IMG/VR virus record: IMGVR_UViG_3300018059_000011
Coordinates: 20,544 to 84,543 of that record
Reading direction: 5' to 3' (one strand)
Source: a virus
Length of the DNA: 64,000 nt
Shown here: in pieces, positions 3,450 to 64,000 of the stretch
How positions within the stretch are numbered: position 1 is the stretch's first letter
Layout: each line of letters begins with the position of its first letter
Program-made: the position numbers and the translations under genes
Notes under the pieces: generated by a model
Databases searched by the model: none
Told to the model about the DNA's origin: nothing
Seen by the model: only the letters and a program-made list of their open reading frames with translations

Positions 3450-4079
3450 ATGGCTGCCTACGTCAGAGTGACTTTTGTGCTTACCGGGCCTGATCGCGGT
3501 AAGACGAAGAAAGTCAAGCATTATTCATTCGTCAACGGCGAATGCACGGTGGATGTCCCACGCACGGGGCTTGCCCACGCGGCCAATTATCTGTCATACT
3601 TCGCTTCGTACCTCAAGGGATCGCCGGAGCATCTGGCGGACCTTGCGGCAAGTGAGGAAGCAGTCAATGGCGTACTCGGTAACGCTCCAGCGGGTGTTCA
3701 GGTCGGTGATGCTGACTTCGTACAAAGTCCTGAGCATCGACAGGCCGGGCCGGTTCCCGCCGCGCAAGATGTCAACGGCGGCGTCCCAGGAGATCGTGAG
3801 GAAGGGCGGGAGCGGGCTTCCGATTCCACCACAGGGCTTGGACCACAAGACTCCGGGCTGGCAGGGAAACACGCCGAACCTTCGGGGCTGAATGTAAGCC
3901 CGTTGTCTCGGGCGATCACGGCTCTCGATCCCGAAGTCGATACCAATTGGACAGAAGGCGGCTTGCCCGCCATTGCCGCGCTGGCCGCGTTCGACCCGTC
4001 GCTTACGCGCAGGGTCATCAATGAGGCGGCGCCGGGTTGGAATCGCGCCAAGGCGCGAGACGCCGCATCGCTTCTCTGA
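3450..4079 (+). CDS. Hypothetical head-region protein
   Basis: GGAGG RBS; C-terminal LDPEVDTNWTEGGLP helical motif; genome-typical codon bias. Confidence 0.65.
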   Translation: MAAYVRVTFVLTGPDRGKTKKVKHYSFVNGECTVDVPRTGLAHAANYLSYFASYLKGSPEHLADLAASEEAVNGVLGNAPAGVQVGDADFVQSPEHRQAGPVPAAQDVNGGVPGDREEGRERASDSTTGLGPQDSGLAGKHAEPSGLNVSPLSRAITALDPEVDTNWTEGGLPAIAALAAFDPSLTRRVINEAAPGWNRAKARDAASLL

Positions 4080-4086
4080 GCCGGGG

Positions 4087-4116
4087 TTGCGTACTCGACC
4101 CGGCATCGGATATACT
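4087..4116 (+). promoter_or_regulatory. Putative late promoter
   Basis: gggTTGCGT-18bp-TATACT in an intergenic gap. Confidence 0.6.
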
Positions 4117-4154
4117 CATCGAGTGACATGAACCATCCAATGGAGTGAACGACT

Positions 4155-4475
4155 ATGACCCAGACCATTTTTCTTGTGACCCGTTCGGCTGCCATCGGCG
4201 GACCACTGGTCAACGGCGTGGTCGCCATTCTCATCAACCTGCTCGACAGTTCCACCGATGCCGAAGTCATCGCCGCCGCAATCGCGCAAGCGAATAGGCA
4301 GGCGGGTGATACCGGCGCGAAGCCGTTTCCAGTGGCCGATGACGACGACAATGTGTCCGGGCATTATTTCGACACCGTGACCGTGATCGCCATCGGGTCG
4401 GCTCCGCTTAATGCTTCCACCGACGCCATCGTCATCGGATCGTTTGACGGCGCCGTCGAGATCGAGCAGGTCTAA
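4155..4475 (+). CDS. Small structural protein, possibly a distant paralog of the two decoration proteins
   Basis: GGAG RBS; LVNGVVAILI...DAEVIAAAIAQ resembles LVNGVEAMVV...DAIAFAKAQ. Confidence 0.6.
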   Translation: MTQTIFLVTRSAAIGGPLVNGVVAILINLLDSSTDAEVIAAAIAQANRQAGDTGAKPFPVADDDDNVSGHYFDTVTVIAIGSAPLNASTDAIVIGSFDGAVEIEQV

Positions 4476-18879: not shown

Positions 18880-21800
18880 TGGGTCAGGTAGGCCAACTCG
18901 TTGTCGGCGTAGTCGGGGGCGTTATCGGCGCATTCTTCGGGGTGCCGCAGCTTGGCTTCATGCTGGGGTCGTTGGCTGGCAGCTTTCTGTTCCCAACAAA
19001 AGGACCAAATCAGGAAGGCCCGCGTCTTGACAACCTCTCGGTCACGTCATCGACCTACGGCCAGCCGATCTTCATTATCTACGGCACCGTTCGTGTTGGG
19101 GGCAATATCATTTGGTCGAAGCCGATCCGTGAACAAAAGACGGTGACCAAGCAGAGCGGCGGCAAGGGCGGCGCTGGAAGCAGCGGCAAGACCACGACCT
19201 ATGCTTATTACTGGACGGGAGCCGTCGCTCTCGGCGAAGGCCCGATTGTCGATGTCGTGAAGATTTGGACCGATACCAAGATCGCGTATGACCGTACTGG
19301 AACTTCGAGCACTGTCCGCAAGCCAGATTTTCGTTTCCGTGTCTACTACGGTGACGAGTTGCAGATGCCGGATGCGGCTATCGCCGCTGACAAGGGCGAC
19401 GCCAATGTCACTGCTCATCGAGGTATGGCCTACATCGTGTTCGATGACATTCCGCTGAAGGACTATGGCAACCGTGTTCCTAGTTTTACGTTCGAGGTCG
19501 TCGCCAATACCGGCGGTGCCACAGCCACGGGCGTTCACGGGATCATCGACTTGACGAGCGGGCCGGTCGCGGCTCCGCGCACTGGCATCCTTGTTCCTAA
19601 CTGGGTGCATCGTCGGCTCTACAAATTCCGTGACGGCGACTCCGGGGGCATCCATGTCTATAATATGGAGACGCGAAAAGAGATTCGGCAAGCTGCGGTA
19701 TTCGACGTAGTGGAACCCGATGATTCTTTTAGTCTTGGTTTTGGAGGCGAAGTCGCAGTAGACGATGATGGTTTCATTTACGCCCAGCTTACTAGCGGCG
19801 GCGCCAACAGCCGAGCGGTTGTCAAGATCGACGGCTTCTCTCTGAAAGAAGTCGCCCGAATCGGTAGCTCCTCGTCCAATTTGGACCCGCTCAAGAACAT
19901 CATTACCGGGGATAATTTTTGCGTCGTCAATGCCTATTCCGCCACTGGCCTGAATCGCTATCTTGTGAATTGCGATTACCGAGGGGATGTGCAGTTCATT
20001 CACTGCGGCGGCAGCGGCATGACCCTCTCATGTGTTACGTCTGTGGATGAGTTCAAAGCCTATGGCGTTCCGGGTGAGACCCGAGATGGGCGGGCCGTGT
20101 GCTATCTTGTCGGTCGCGCGCAGTTTGGCCCGCAATCGACGGAGCCTTTTGGCATCTATCGGATAACGGTGCCGGGCACCGCATATTTGTCGGCGATCAC
20201 CGACCAGCCTAATCCGGTTTTCACACGTACCAAACTCGGGACTATCTCGCCCACCCAAGTCGTCTCGTGGTGGTCCTATTTCAACAGCTTCGGTGGCTCG
20301 TTCTACGACACCCATGAGGGCCGTCTCTATCTTTTGGTGGAGGGTGGCCGCTTCTTCACGACCAAGACGAAGTATCTCGTCCGATACAATCCCGAGACGG
20401 CCTCGGTTGAATGGGCGAAGCCCCTCACCGTCAGCTTTTCCTTTACCGCTTACAATGGATTCTATCGTGTAAACTCCGGTTTTGTTTCGTTCGTGGGCGA
20501 CACAAATTTCGGGACTCACACGAGTCCTGTGCAGACCTTCAATCTTTCGACCGGGGATAGCGCCGAGACCGACCAGTGGGACTTCGAGGGCACGGTCGGT
20601 GGCGCCCAGACCTATGATTCTCAAACTGGGGCGATCATTGCTGTTGGTACTACCCTGGCGGATACCGGAGAGACGAATTGCATTATCTACACCGGCAGGG
20701 CCTCATCCGCTGGGGCCAACCTTGGTGACATCGTTACGAATCTGTGTGGTCGCGTTGGCCTGGAATCATCTGACATCGACGTGGCCGAACTCACCGATGA
20801 CGTGGATGGATATGTCATCAACAATCAATCTACGGTGCGCTCGGCTATCGAGCCTTTGGCGCTGACCTTCAATTTCGATGGAGTGGAATCGGATGACACT
20901 TTGAAGTTCCTGAAGCGTGGCCGTGCGTCGTCGCTGACATTGACCCAGCCTGATCTCAAATTCCTTAGCGATCAGGAAGGCGAGTTTCTTCGCGAGACGC
21001 GGATGCAGGAAGTGGAGTTGCCCGAGCGTGTGTCTCTGGTCTACCTGGACCCAGGCAAGGACTACCAGCAGAACACTCAGACTACTAAACGAATCAGCAA
21101 GCCGACGCCTAGCATGTTCTCGGCCAATCAAATCTCGAACACGATTCCAGTCGTGATGTCGGCGTCATTTGCCAAGCAACTTTCCGAGACGCTCCTGTAC
21201 ACGTCTTGGATCGAACGCATTCGCCAGGAGATCGCGATTAGCTGGGAGTACGCGAAGCTCGATCCTGTCGATGCCGTGACGATCAATCTCGACAATGGAA
21301 CGGTATATGAAGTCCGGCTTACCTCGGTTGACATTGGCGCCGATCTGACGATGGAACTGAAGTCGGTGAACGAGAAGGCGACCTCTTATTCCTCGCATGT
21401 TCCGGCTGACGGCGGCGATGGATTCCCGCAGCAGGTTCTTCCTGGCCTGAGCACGACCAAGACTTTCATCATGGACTGCACGTTGCTTCGCGATAGCGAC
21501 GATACCGGCGGTACTGTGTCGCGGATGTACGCCGCTGGTGGCGGCTTTGGTCAGCCCAATTGGCCCGGTGAGCAAATCGAGCACAGCGCCGATGGCAGCT
21601 TCTACAATGTGGTCGCCCAGATTCCGAATGAGTCTGCATGGGGATCGGTGGGGGATGCCCTTCCCGGCGTCACTAATCCTTTTGCCACGGACGAAGATAA
21701 CACCATCACCGTGTTCATGAACTCTGGTGAGGATCAGCTTGAGAGCATCACCGATCTGGAGATGGTGAATGGGGCCAATCCTGCGATCTTGTGGGATGAG

Positions 21801-34240: not shown

Positions 34241-34311
34241 TGGGGATTCGTCCAACGGTAGGACTCCGGGCTCTGAACCCGGCAATGCAGATTCGACTTC
34301 TGTGTCCCTAG
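34241..34311 (+). tRNA. tRNA-Gln(CTG); CTA follows the discriminator instead of CCA
   Basis: Acceptor TGGGGAT/GTCCCTA, D-arm GTCC/GGAC, anticodon arm CCGGG-CTCTGAA-CCCGG, T-arm GCAGA-TTCGACT-TCTGT. Confidence 0.9.
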
Positions 34312-34644
34312 CTAAGCGCCGTACTTCTCATTCCAATGAAATTTGCGATGGCAGTTTGAGCACAAAACATCGCACTTTGCGATCTCTGCGAGGATACTGG
34401 GTTTTCCTCTACCAGCGAGAACACCGTGCGTAATATCGAAAAGTTTGGAGAATGGATCACGGTGATGGAAGTCCAAGCAGGCCGGATGCGATTCGGGGCA
34501 ATGCGAGCATTTCAACTTAGCCCTCAACGCCTCGAACCATTCACGGATTTCTATTTTTCGGCTCCTGATTCTTTTGACCTCTGATACCCGATTACGAGCG
34601 TACCATCGGTTTTGGGCCTGAAGTTGTTTCGACCGATCTCTCAT
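34312..34644 (-). CDS. HNH endonuclease inserted at the tRNA 3' end
   Basis: CSHC...LDFHHRDP...EIAKCDVLCSNCHRKFH. Confidence 0.9.
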   Translation of the reverse strand: MRDRSKQLQAQNRWYARNRVSEVKRIRSRKIEIREWFEALRAKLKCSHCPESHPACLDFHHRDPFSKLFDITHGVLAGRGKPSILAEIAKCDVLCSNCHRKFHWNEKYGA

Positions 34645-34680: not shown

Positions 34681-34852
34681 GTCCGAATCCTGTGTCCCCA
34701 GCCAAGCGCCGCGATAACATATACGTTGTCGTCTTCACGGCTTTTGATAACGCAGATGTTGTCGGTGTCGCCGCCGTTATACTCACTTCGTCCATTTGCG
34801 GGTATAGCGGCCCCGTATCCGAATCTGGCCTCTTTGTGTCCTGATTAGCTTA

Positions 34853-60544: not shown

Positions 60545-60738
60545 GGCTTTGCCTCCACTGTGGCGACGAATCGCTCGCCGCAATTGCAGATGTACGCCCG
60601 CCAAAGATTTCCGTCCGGCATCCGCACGAACGGCGACACCTTTGCGTGCGTATGATTTCCAATGATGTTGTCCGCGCGCGGGCAAGCCGGATGCAGTCTG
60701 TTGGCGTGAAAGAGAGTCTGAGCTTCTTCGCGGTTCAT
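60541..60738 (-). CDS. Small Cys/His (zinc-finger-like) protein
   Basis: C...H...CNCG; ATGA overlaps at both ends. Confidence 0.55.
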   Translation of the reverse strand: MNREEAQTLFHANRLHPACPRADNIIGNHTHAKVSPFVRMPDGNLWRAYICNCGERFVATVEAKP

Positions 60739-61166
60739 TTAGTTCTCTCCAAATAGTCCGCGCATTTACGCAAGCGTGTAACTTCGTCTTGGGCATGTCC
60801 GATTGTCCGATTGCAAGCACAACACAGTACGCCGCGTACTTTGTTTGTAACGTGATCGTGGTCTACTACAAGGCGCTTAGGTCCGGTCTTTTCAAAAGCG
60901 TCACCGCAGGCAGCGCAACAATTATTTTGACTTGAGAGCATGTTCTCAAAATCAGACAGCGAGAGTCCGTATTTTTGTTTAAGGTGCCAAACTCTATATT
61001 TGGTCCGGTAGTCATCACCGCGTTCCAATCGCCAACGATTCATGTAATTGGCATGACGCTTTTTATCGCGAAGGCGCCTAGCTACTACGCGATCAGGACG
61101 CCGGTTACGCTTTTTATCATGCGCCCGGATTCTAGCCTTGCTTTCTTCTGATCGCCACACCATCAT
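60735..61166 (-). CDS. Endonuclease VII-like homing-type nuclease
   Basis: KYGLS...QNNCCAAC...VDHDHVTNKVRGVLCCACNRTIG; AT-rich. Confidence 0.92.
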   Translation of the reverse strand: MMVWRSEESKARIRAHDKKRNRRPDRVVARRLRDKKRHANYMNRWRLERGDDYRTKYRVWHLKQKYGLSLSDFENMLSSQNNCCAACGDAFEKTGPKRLVVDHDHVTNKVRGVLCCACNRTIGHAQDEVTRLRKCADYLERTK

Positions 61167-61167
61167 T

Positions 61168-63183
61168 CTACTTCCTGTAACGGTCCTCGCGCCAGCATTC
61201 CACCGAGATCGGGCAGCCCTTCACCCACGGCGGAACCACGCACATGAGTTCCTCGAACTCATCGGCGCTGCCGAAGTCGGGATCGGTTTCGGAGATGATT
61301 TCGTCATGCACCGTCAGGATCACGGGGTACTTCGCGATCTCCAGCCGGATCATCGCCTCGGCCATGATGTCGCGCGAGATCGCCTGGACGATATTTTCCG
61401 TGAGCATCCCGCCGTAGGTTTGGATCGGACCCCATTTGCCGCCCTTCTTGGAGTCTTTACCCCAATACGTGATCTGGTCTTTCGGACCCCAAGAATGATG
61501 AACCTCTTCGATCCTTGGATTGAAATACCAGAGGCGACGGCCATTCGGGAGAATGCAAGTCAGCCATTTGCCGGACTTATCCTTGACCATCTCGAATGCG
61601 ATGTTGCGGTATGCCGAACGGAAGCCGGTCCTAACACAAGCGACAGCCGCTTCCTCAATCGCGTACCAGAACTGCACCACCTTCGGATGCTTTTTGCGCC
61701 AAGCTACTTTCTTCTCATCGACTTCGGAGTCGTTGTATTTATCGGACTTGTCGAACTTGCGCCATGCGTTGACGCCGCCCTGGTATCCGAACGCGAGTTC
61801 GCAGGTCTTGCCGACCTGACGTTCCTTTTTGTAGGTGTCCTTGGTCAGACACGGGTAGCCGAAGACCTGCGATGCCGTCGCCAGATAGATGTCCTGCGAA
61901 CCCCCGTAGCCTTCGCCACGGTCGATCCCGGCGAAGGCGTCGAGTTTCCACTGCTCGCCCGCGACCCATGCGAGCACGCGGGCTTCAATCGCCGAGAAGT
62001 CGCCGACGTTCATGACCTTGCCGGAACCGGCCACGAACATTCCGCGCAAAGCCGTGGACAGCGCATTCATGGGATCGCCGTACAGGACTTCCATTGCCGC
62101 GATGTCGCCGGTCTTGATGATCTTGATGAGGCGCGACATTCCCAGCCGCGCATTCTTGGTGATGATCTCTTCGTCGCCGCGTGGAAAGTTGTGCGGCTGA
62201 GGCCCGCGACCAGCCCACCGGCCAGTGCCAGCGCCGTGGTATTGCAGCAGCCCTCGCACGCGGCCATCACGACAAACCCAATCGAGAAGGCTATCGAGCT
62301 TCTTGATCGACGCCAGCGAGAGCATTTGACGGATTTGCAGCACCCGGCGGGCCTCGGGAGTGATCCCTTTATTTTCGAGCGCGATGTCGATGCTGTCGGC
62401 CTTCATGTCCGGCATATCGAGTTCGGCGTAATCCAAAAGCCATTGCTTGATGCGCGCCCGTTGCGATCCCTTCGTGACGATACCAGATGTCATCTTCGTG
62501 AGTTCGGCGTTGAGCGTCGTCTCGATAGTATTGCAGATCAGCTTCGCGGCGTTGATGGCTTCGAGATCAAGGGCGACGCCACGCTGATTGATAGTCTGGT
62601 CGAGCACCCAAAGCTTCTGCTCGGAGTCGGTGAGATCGCCGATGGTAACACCGAGGCCATGCTCGGTGTCTGTGTCACGGACGCAGTAGTCGTAAAGCTC
62701 CTGCATCAAGTCGAAGTCGTCGCACCATTCGCTCGTATTGTTCTTGGTGATCTTCTGCGGCGCGCAGAGTTTGCGGATCAGGAATTTGCCGCGCGGGTCT
62801 TTCTTAGTTGTGAGATTGAGGGCGTCTCCGACCTGATCCAAGCCAAGAGGCAGCGCCCGATACGCGCAGACGGCCAGTGTGTCTTTCCACCGCCGGGGCA
62901 TGGGAATGCCCATCTGCTTATTGAGAATGTTGATCCAGATCGCGCGCTCGAATTGCGCGTTGTGCGCCTCGAAGAAGATGACGCCTGAATTGATGAGGTC
63001 GATGAGGGCTTGGGGAAACGGAAGATCAGGAGTCCACAGGCCGGTGCGCCCGTTCCCGATTTTATACGACATGCACAAGATGGAAGTCGAAGCATCCTCG
63101 GCGTAGCGCCAAGCTCCAACTACAGTTACGTCCAAACGACTACGGGTTTCAAAATCGACCACAACTTTATCGGGAAGAAGCAT
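61168..63183 (-). CDS. polA: Family A DNA polymerase with 3'-5' exonuclease
   Basis: DFETRS, AHNAQFE, TGRWAG, DFSAIEARVLAW, KTCELAFGYQGG, VHDE. Confidence 0.95.
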   Translation of the reverse strand: MLLPDKVVVDFETRSRLDVTVVGAWRYAEDASTSILCMSYKIGNGRTGLWTPDLPFPQALIDLINSGVIFFEAHNAQFERAIWINILNKQMGIPMPRRWKDTLAVCAYRALPLGLDQVGDALNLTTKKDPRGKFLIRKLCAPQKITKNNTSEWCDDFDLMQELYDYCVRDTDTEHGLGVTIGDLTDSEQKLWVLDQTINQRGVALDLEAINAAKLICNTIETTLNAELTKMTSGIVTKGSQRARIKQWLLDYAELDMPDMKADSIDIALENKGITPEARRVLQIRQMLSLASIKKLDSLLDWVCRDGRVRGLLQYHGAGTGRWAGRGPQPHNFPRGDEEIITKNARLGMSRLIKIIKTGDIAAMEVLYGDPMNALSTALRGMFVAGSGKVMNVGDFSAIEARVLAWVAGEQWKLDAFAGIDRGEGYGGSQDIYLATASQVFGYPCLTKDTYKKERQVGKTCELAFGYQGGVNAWRKFDKSDKYNDSEVDEKKVAWRKKHPKVVQFWYAIEEAAVACVRTGFRSAYRNIAFEMVKDKSGKWLTCILPNGRRLWYFNPRIEEVHHSWGPKDQITYWGKDSKKGGKWGPIQTYGGMLTENIVQAISRDIMAEAMIRLEIAKYPVILTVHDEIISETDPDFGSADEFEELMCVVPPWVKGCPISVECWREDRYRK

Positions 63184-63577
63184 ATACTTCCTCCATTTTT
63201 CTAAGCACAGCCTGGGCCAATTGGAGAAGTTCTTGGGGAGAAAGACTCCCCTTCGCCCGGTTGCACCTATTGCAAATCACCCAAACATTGGTGGGGATGT
63301 ACCCGCGCTTGGAGTCAATCCTGTCCAGTGTTGGAGAATAGTTAGCGATCTTGTCGTCAGCCACTTTCATAGAGACGTGGCAAATTGGGCAATGCGAAGG
63401 AATAGGAGTGATGTCGGCGGGGGTCAATCGGTATTCAAGACCGTCTCTTCTGGAGCGTTCTCTAGCCCCTTTCAACATATTGATGTAGGGACGTTCGTGT
63501 TGTTGTCGTCTTTTGATAAGCCGCGCTTTTTCAGGAAAGCGCTTGGCCCATTTGTTCCCGCCGCCCTTTTTCCTCAT
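63167..63577 (-). CDS. HNH endonuclease inserted in the polymerase 5' end
   Basis: CPIC...PTLDRIDSKRGYIPTNVWVICNRCNRAKG. Confidence 0.9.
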   Translation of the reverse strand: MRKKGGGNKWAKRFPEKARLIKRRQQHERPYINMLKGARERSRRDGLEYRLTPADITPIPSHCPICHVSMKVADDKIANYSPTLDRIDSKRGYIPTNVWVICNRCNRAKGSLSPQELLQLAQAVLRKMEEVYASSR

Positions 63578-63663
63578 GGCAACACCGGCCACGCGCCGAC
63601 GACGGTCACGTCAAGACGCGACCTCGTTTCAAAATCGACGACTACCTTGTCCGGCAGAAGCAA
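63574..63663 (-). pseudogene. Orphaned original polymerase N-terminus (29-aa mini-ORF)
   Basis: TTG start; LLPDKVVVDFETRSRLDVTVVGAW-PVLP*; stop overlaps the HNH ATG (ATGA). Confidence 0.85.
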
Positions 63664-63718
63664 CGGAGCACCACGGCTAAGTTAGCCGCATATCATTCCC
63701 CACGTTTACCATGATGAG

Positions 63719-63746
63719 ATCATACGCCGATGTGAGAGGATGTCAA
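63719..63746 (-). promoter_or_regulatory. Promoter for the polymerase operon, with a downstream palindrome at 63674-63688
   Basis: TTGACA-16bp-TATGAT; CGGCTAA-G-TTAGCCG. Confidence 0.6.
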
Positions 63747-64000
63747 ACGGATTTCGGGGTGGTCGGCCTGACTTGGGACCAAGGCCGCAACGAGTGAGAG
63801 CATCTGACGATGCCATCGTTGGCGACCACTCCGAAAATCGTCGGTCGGTCTGACTTGTAACCAGACTGTAAGGTTCGAGACCAGATTATGAATCCGGTCT
63901 TCCCTGGCGACTCCCGATAGGGCAGCGGGGCTACCCTACGACTAGCGCCGGGTGCCCCACTGGGGTCCATCGTCCTTTAGGGGCGATGGTTCCCTGTTCA

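Follow-up and report, generated by a model that had tools for sequence, protein, structure and literature searches.

The DNA polymerase gene of the uncultured sediment phage in IMG/VR virus record IMGVR_UViG_3300018059_000011 has probably been invaded by a free-standing HNH homing-endonuclease element, which carried with it a diverged, synonymous copy of the start of the gene. Homing endonucleases are usually said to persist in essential genes only by means of self-splicing introns or inteins, and occasionally by gene splitting. The locus described here would represent a third solution, found in an essential replication gene of a phage, in which the interrupted end of the gene is replaced by a differently spelled copy. 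The record is a linear virus contig of 84.5 kb with an estimated completeness of 87 %. The window, by which we mean the whole stretch of DNA analysed, comprises its last 64 kb (64,000 nucleotides, positions 20,544 to 84,543 of the record), and window and contig end together.

The architecture of the locus can be read directly from the minus strand. In order of transcription stand a promoter-like site, a short open reading frame (ORF) starting with TTG that we call the stub, the nuclease ORF, the polymerase gene (polA) and an endonuclease VII-like gene, with nuclease genes flanking polA on both ends. The features are the following, in window positions:

63719..63746, minus strand: putative sigma-70-like promoter (TTGACA, 16-base spacer, TATGAT; 11 of 12 matches), upstream of the old polymerase start
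63574..63663, minus strand: stub of the native polymerase start, 29 codons (TTG and 24 codons at 63589-63663, then four unrelated codons), ending in TGA
63108..63587, minus strand: inserted cassette of 480 bases, made of a 10-base leader, the HNH gene, a ribosome-binding site and replacement codons 1-25
63167..63577, minus strand: HNH-type (beta-beta-alpha-metal) nuclease gene, 136 residues, its ATG overlapping the TGA of the stub
63190..63194, minus strand: GGAGG ribosome-binding site of the restored polymerase start, inside the 3′ end of the HNH gene
63109..63183, minus strand: replacement copy of polymerase codons 1-25, with ATG start, a GC content at third codon positions (GC3) of 0.32 and the conserved DFET exonuclease motif
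61168..63183, minus strand: intact family-A DNA polymerase gene, 671 residues (PF00476, E 5e-15; phrog_17, E 9e-105)
60735..61166, minus strand: endonuclease VII-like gene (PF02945, E 3e-20), starting one base after the polymerase stop; context, outside the cassette

The reading frames are intact and interlocked. The TGA of the stub and the ATG of the HNH gene overlap as ATGA at 63577, the GGAGG stands 6 bases upstream of the polymerase ATG at 63183, and the HNH stop codon (63167-63169) lies 17 bases inside polA, where it is formed by recoded codons 5-6. An earlier note on this DNA had reported the mini-ORF at 63663-63574, the ATGA overlap, the GGAGG and the new ATG at 63183, and all of these are present. 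Its further claim, that the same 25 residues are re-encoded with 17 of 25 codons changed, mostly towards A/T endings, was likewise confirmed.

The start of the polymerase is thus encoded twice, and the duplication is beyond chance. Residues 1-25 are identical between the TTG mini-ORF and the polymerase ORF read from ATG 63183. The two copies differ at 21 of 75 bases and every difference is synonymous; in codons 2-25 this holds for all 20 differences, and when 20 changes were placed at random 200,000 times this outcome never arose. The copies share just 8 of 24 codons, where two independent back-translations of the peptide are expected to give 7.8-9.3. The longest identical run between the copies is 14 bases, across the DFET exonuclease motif, and all six changeable codons adjoining the junction (19-24) have been changed. 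The 26 nearest polymerases (53-59 % identical overall) match 0-15 of 24 of the start residues, so this segment is not unusually conserved.

The two copies also differ in composition. With a GC3 of 0.72 the upstream copy is close to the remainder of polA (0.75), whereas the downstream copy has a value of 0.32, which jumps to 0.74 in codons 26-125. Ranked by GC3, the replacement start comes last of 99 crude ORF starts in the genome (mean 0.615, standard deviation 0.123), and a value as low is found in 1.4 % of 4,081 internal 25-codon windows. Even the nuclease gene, at 0.54, lies above the replacement copy. The predicted RNA folding energy is -12.3 kcal/mol for the replacement copy versus -27.1 for the native copy. 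A peptide-level self-comparison in six frames, covering the 84.5-kb genome and 12 related loci (at least 14 residues, at least 75 % identity), returned the polymerase duplicate alone; otherwise the genome gave low-complexity or proline-rich repeats, and locus L005 a repeat at the DNA level. In the same six-frame comparison of the genome, no duplicated PolA C-terminus was found after the endonuclease VII gene.

The polarity of the insertion and its exact borders come from a natural empty site. We compared the contigs of four public sequencing runs (X2-X5) holding near-identical DNA against window positions 60700-64000. Run X5, a sediment metagenome from a study other than the source, contains a contig of 2,593 bases (depth 26) with about 82-83 % DNA identity to the polymerase gene: it differs at 96 positions in 62542-63107 (566 bases) and at 90 in 61840-62336. 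By our own count, 26 of the 31 differences listed for 62732-62908 fall at third codon positions, which identifies the contig as a coding homologue. This contig, known as alignment coordinates, connects 63107 straight to 63588 and omits exactly 480 bases. Its next 53 bases align to the upstream GC-rich copy (63588-63640) and not to 63108-63160, with no piece fitting two places. The cassette is therefore the insertion and the upstream copy the native one. The border is ambiguous by four bases, TGGC being present on both sides; otherwise the empty site fixes the cassette to the base.

Two points of the earlier note bear on this contig. The 480-base cassette placed after codon 25 equals the stretch that the X5 contig lacks, and an HNH-free relative reading from the GC-rich copy into the body of the polymerase, which the note had predicted, exists in this one contig. 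Presence and absence at the precise site among related genomes are accordingly represented by a single empty allele. Deleting the cassette in silico leaves a 671-codon ORF that starts from the TTG and encodes the same product. The GC content of the cassette is 0.50, against 0.57-0.58 in its flanks.

Several further observations concern the contigs. A piece of the nuclease gene, 151 bases long and 100 % identical, is also present in run X5. A further 189 bases (63641-63829, a multiple of three) are skipped in the alignment of the empty-site relative; in the present phage they hold the promoter-like site, the leader and codons 1-7. Beyond them the alignment resumes from 63830 to about 63920 at an identity of at least 80 %. 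Contigs of run X2 leave 62934-63388 uncovered and those of run X3 leave 62643-63592 uncovered, one X3 contig ending at 63593, five bases from the junction. Such gaps might mark a point where occupied and empty alleles part, or simply follow from low depth (2-5), and we give them no weight.

No known splicing device accounts for the interruption, as the earlier note had proposed. A cmscan search of 62800-64000 at E <= 1 returned no group I or group II intron family; its single match (E 0.6) was to a vertebrate long non-coding RNA model. The nuclease ORF fills 411 of the 480 bases, leaving 69 outside it and hence no room for a ribozyme core. An intein is excluded by the reading frames, since the nuclease lies in a different frame and the polymerase frame meets a TGA four codons past the stub. 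A gene in pieces of the Aeh1 nrdA or T4 gene 39/60 type was also rejected: the downstream ORF specifies the complete protein of 671 residues, with the 25 that the stub repeats.

We regard it as highly improbable that the 480 bases form an unrecognised intron that is taken out of the RNA, or that they reflect a chimeric assembly. Precise removal would indeed yield an intact ORF from the TTG, and among the pieces listed from runs X2-X5 none bridges the right junction. Set against an intron, no Rfam family rises above noise in 62800-64000, and a complete second start with its own GGAGG would be pointless. A chimera has to contend with the left junction, which is also present in the contigs of an independent run (an X2 piece spans 63532-64000 with two differences). 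Moreover, the bases of the replacement copy are unique, so that an assembler could not have joined them to the gene body without genuine reads.

The protein encoded by the cassette belongs to a large nuclease family. It matches phrog_3322, annotated 'endonuclease', at E 1.5e-24, and an exhaustive search found 14,750 cluster representatives of the family at E <= 0.001. Among the matches listed, identity to the nuclease is 29-48 %, besides one identical fragment of 67 residues. This fragment (P0121), the version of the nuclease in the protein collection, corresponds to residues 70-136 and begins at Met70. From the identity it looks like this record's own truncated gene call, the truncation being presumably due to the overlapping nuclease start that lacks a ribosome site. 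We aligned the nuclease with 20 of 150 listed matches, picked for shortness and a single matched stretch (21 sequences in total). All eight residues invariant in this family alignment are kept in the nuclease (A38, R41, C63, D85, Y93, N97, N106 and K109). By family match and conserved residues, the protein thus has the nuclease domain of a free-standing HNH homing endonuclease. Members of the family in cultured phages are small free-standing genes between replication genes. The only solved relative found by sequence is the HNH restriction enzyme PacI, a weak match at E 0.03.

The expression signals suggest how three reading frames may share one transcript. Positions 62900-64000 contain one promoter-like site, where shuffled sequences give a mean of 0.6, and the site at 63719-63746 likely serves the stub, the HNH gene and polA. 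We found no ribosome-binding site for the nuclease ATG. As this ATG overlaps the stop codon of the stub, re-initiation after the stub is plausible, and the stub is a possible leader ORF for the HNH gene. GGAG-type sites precede 32 of 117 ORFs, a figure that takes first in-frame starts and is too rough to define the norm of this phage. The replacement copy is the functional start of the polymerase: an element lying at the 5′ end must restore translation itself, and here it does so with the GGAGG and the ATG.

A hairpin of nine pairs is predicted between 63186-63194 and 63173-63181, in which the GGAGG is paired to polA codons 2-4; the whole fold is not significant (z -1.0). The loop holds the first two letters of the ATG, and its G takes part in the closing pair. 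Two of the synonymous changes, those in codons 3 and 4, fall on paired positions of the predicted stem. Translation of the nuclease passes through the hairpin and, on this model, could open it.

Taken together, these observations are consistent with the following scheme. The mobile unit would consist of the nuclease gene, the ribosome-binding site with its ATG, and the synonymous copy of codons 1-25 in frame with the body, inserted after base 76 of the polymerase gene (codon 25/26). The polymerase would be made whole from the new start with neither RNA nor protein splicing, and the resident 25 codons would remain as the stub. By analogy with the yeast WHO elements discussed below, empty alleles would be cleaved by the nuclease in the vicinity of codon 25/26, and repair from an occupied genome would follow, using as arms the stub with its upstream DNA on one side and the polymerase body on the other; the stub is likely the left homology arm. 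The replacement copy would make the occupied allele uncuttable, a resistance suggested by the 21 base differences and in particular by the six changed codons on the junction side. As no identical run exceeds 14 bases, recombination between stub and copy, which would delete the element, should be prevented. Transcription of the nuclease would probably begin at the polymerase promoter, and ribosomes would probably re-initiate on it once they had read the stub ORF. In this scheme cleavage, immunity, homing and the coupling of expression are inferred, whereas the architecture, the polarity and borders of the insertion, the intact frames and the nuclease family are established by the sequence data.

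Where the replacement copy came from is a separate matter. That it is a foreign donor allele which arrived together with the nuclease is, in our judgement, an evenly balanced proposition. Somewhat unlikely, but compatible with a homing element, is that selection drove the recoding of the copy, whether this preceded or followed insertion; the benefits would be destruction of a nuclease half-site, an end to deleting recombination and a loosening of mRNA structure at the new start. Recoding would account for the absence of any residue change at a codon identity (8 of 24) that equals the level of independent back-translation, in a segment that relatives conserve weakly. It would also account for the change of every changeable codon at the junction, for a GC3 that lies under even that of the nuclease gene, and for the weaker predicted folding. 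Precedent argues otherwise: horizontal transfer is the published reading for Glomus atp6, whose inserted and native ends share 63.5 % of their DNA and 91 % of their protein sequence (PMC3630166), and at the Glomus protein rate our own arithmetic gives 25 identical residues of 25 by chance about once in ten. Moreover, synonymous change from a GC3-rich sequence tends towards A and T, so that the bias is not independent evidence of recoding.

The genome contains other nuclease genes beside duplicated targets. The 3′ end of a glutamine transfer RNA gene (tRNA-Gln, 34241-34312), which is still recognised as a tRNA, is copied 390 bases downstream (34291-34321 versus 34681-34711; 25 of 31 bases identical). 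Between the two copies of this 3′ end lies a canonical HNH gene on the minus strand (34312-34644; phrog_3106, E 1.5e-23). This is a clear second case of the same layout, at an RNA gene. A weaker case lies upstream of the window (locus L015, genome coordinates 3766-4262), where a 9-codon stub with a GGAGG meets an endonuclease VII-like gene in a GTGA overlap. The TGA of that gene (3792-4262) overlaps the ATG of a phosphoesterase gene (4259), and the first residues of the phosphoesterase resemble the stub. The match is short, and its score of 24, against noise of up to 20, leaves the similarity barely above noise. Endonuclease VII-like genes number at least four in the genome (60735-61166 and 109-537 in the window; 3756/3792 to 4259/4262 and 10356-11087 in L015), alongside four paralogues of the HNH family phrog_2255/3106.

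The repeated layout matters for a further explanation, that the cassette is the scar of a one-off illegitimate recombination, in which case the nuclease would not have to target the site, nor would the unit have to be mobile today. By this route a break in polA during a mixed infection would have been repaired from a diverged phage with a nuclease gene upstream of its polA; the donor nuclease gene and gene start would have been copied in and joined by the TGGC microhomology. Such an event would explain why the cassette is found in one genome lineage alone and why its borders are ambiguous by four bases. Three of the four ambiguous bases are a tryptophan codon, which has no synonym, so the microhomology is not demonstrated. 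It would also suit the homologues in cultured phages, which are intergenic: no stub stands beside the HNH homologue in Pseudomonas phage PaMx28 or in Ralstonia phage DU_RP_I, the loci checked from 2 of 88 matching records (scores 13-19). The papers on fungal and yeast elements likewise take the inserted gene end as donor DNA (PMC3630166, PMC7282813). The bracketed tRNA-Gln gene and the weaker third case in the same genome tell against a single accident, as does the retention of every family-invariant residue by the nuclease. Since the structure comes with both homology arms, ordinary repair would let it home as soon as it had formed, which makes scar and element hard to distinguish. We consider the scar improbable and prefer the homing element.

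Searches for relatives define the setting in which the homing element has to be judged. In the collections searched, neither the polymerase nor the cassette has a close relative above about 60 % protein identity. IMG/VR yielded 12 related loci, the best at 52 %. Against 5.8 billion proteins the best match to PolA is 57 % identical, short N-terminal fragments gave 11 matches with the best at 69 % over part of the region, and the HNH protein had no match at near lengths. A tblastn search with the nuclease against 50,697 phage records matched 88, all in the band below 60 %, with the 30 listed at 29-43 %. Several of the polymerase relatives P0011, P0020, P0038, P0058, P0059, P0068 and P0110 are 836-1055 residues long, and in four long relatives the best local alignment covers just 68-69 % of the query, a sign that members of this gene family may carry large insertions, possibly inteins. 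In Ralstonia phage DU_RP_I (locus L016, 1-1389) the DNA polymerase is annotated as two coding sequences about 300 bases apart, and this phage has four matches to the nuclease family.

A number of results weigh against the homing element or parts of it. The empty site is represented by one contig of about 83 % identity, seen as coordinates. The right junction (63107/63108) is not bridged by any piece listed from runs X2-X5 and so rests on the source assembly. None of the public runs with near-identical DNA that hold the locus is an RNA run. No cassette donor and no second copy of the cassette turned up in the collections searched, and spread is in consequence not demonstrated; among the matches listed, no nuclease relative exceeds 48 % identity, bar the identical fragment. 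No GGAG-type ribosome site precedes the TTG of the stub, which weakens the idea that the cassette borrows the host gene's translation start. A plain foreign allele would not readily explain why all 25 residues are identical when synonymous change is saturated. As to the nuclease itself, the Pfam HNH model matches at E 0.1, below threshold, and the canonical HNH histidine is absent from the family at the aligned D-R-I-D position. PacI has a tyrosine where other HNH enzymes have a histidine, and this would fit the invariant tyrosine and the D-R-I-D motif of the nuclease.

If a homing element is what the locus holds, it offers a small system of 480 bases for the study of allele-specific cleavage and of immunity through synonymous change, as well as of how a selfish gene taps the expression signals of its host gene. 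It would also offer a natural analogue of gene drives built on recoded rescue. In annotation, stubs and overlapping starts of this kind lead to gene calls that are truncated or missed. More tentatively, and with rather less than even confidence, we propose a general class of phage 'home-and-rescue' elements, in which unrelated free-standing endonucleases carry purpose-evolved, synonymously or structurally recoded replacements of their targets that are immune and do not recombine, with expression of the nuclease wired by a stop-start overlap. The piece replaced would be the gene start in the polymerase and the 3′ end of a tRNA elsewhere in the genome. Such a class would be the natural counterpart of engineered recoded-rescue drives, and would open a third route into essential phage genes besides introns and inteins.

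The closest parallels come from eukaryotes, in yeast WHO elements and fungal mitochondrial mobile endonuclease ORFs (mORFs), for which published work includes biochemical evidence of the mechanism (PMC7282813, PMC3630166). In the WHO elements, which occupy the essential aldolase gene FBA1 of yeast (Coughlan et al. 2020, PMC7282813), a replacement 3′ end that withstands cleavage accompanies the homing endonuclease gene, its resistance being due to sequence differences between alleles; the displaced native end is kept as a fragment that serves as a second homology arm, and cleavage is allele-specific. The phage locus resembles them in replacing the end of an essential gene with a putatively resistant one, in retaining the old end as a fragment and in dispensing with splicing; cleavage would be expected here by analogy, whereas that by Who6 has been demonstrated (PMC7282813). 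The layout is a mirror image, at the 5′ end: the nuclease gene lies between the functional chimeric end and a stranded copy, and the stranded copy is the native one, nearer the empty-site relative and with a GC3 of 0.72 versus 0.32 (gene body 0.74-0.75). WHO elements act at a 3′ end in a eukaryotic nuclear genome through an intein-derived LAGLIDADG-type protein, whereas the phage element acts at a 5′ end through an HNH-type one. Unlike WHO elements, it supplies a ribosome site and a start codon and sits between the gene and its promoter.

The mORFs of fungal mitochondria, known from Allomyces atp6 and from Glomus atp6, atp9, cox2 and nad3, also carry a diverged C-terminal segment (PMC3630166), and partial C-terminal duplications of cob and atp6 are reported beside endonuclease ORFs (PMC6279837). 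In these cases, as here, an endonuclease ORF is accompanied by a diverged copy of the displaced end, the inserted copy being expressed and the native one kept as a duplicate. The mORFs affect the C-terminal ends of proteins, encode LAGLIDADG or GIY-YIG enzymes and reside in organelle genomes (PMC3630166). The phage cassette differs in affecting the N-terminal end, in its 100 % protein identity and in its new translation start.

Among phages, the T4-like group provides intronless homing and split-gene insertions, namely mobE in nrdA, mobA in the topoisomerase gene and seg in gene 43 (PMC2988022). Like these free-standing endonucleases, the present nuclease is a phage gene tied to an essential replication gene by neither intron nor intein. 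In the T4-like cases described, the gene is left untouched by an intergenic insertion or is split into two polypeptides that reassemble, whereas here it is kept in one piece through its duplicated start. The word stem 'duplicat' has 0 occurrences in that review of T4 mobile elements (PMC2988022). The literature searched, mostly non-subscription main texts without supplements, holds no phage precedent for the replacement of a gene end; for phages it yields only intergenic free-standing endonucleases, carriage by introns or inteins, and split genes.

Synthetic home-and-rescue and cleave-and-rescue drives, engineered with Cas9 in insects (PMC7968924, PMC6442612), similarly link a nuclease acting on an essential gene to a recoded, uncleavable rescue copy, a likeness that is functional only. 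The strategy as such has thus already been published for yeast nuclear and fungal mitochondrial genomes; what sets the present case apart is its occurrence in a phage, at the 5′ end of a gene, with a start of its own and with an exact empty site.

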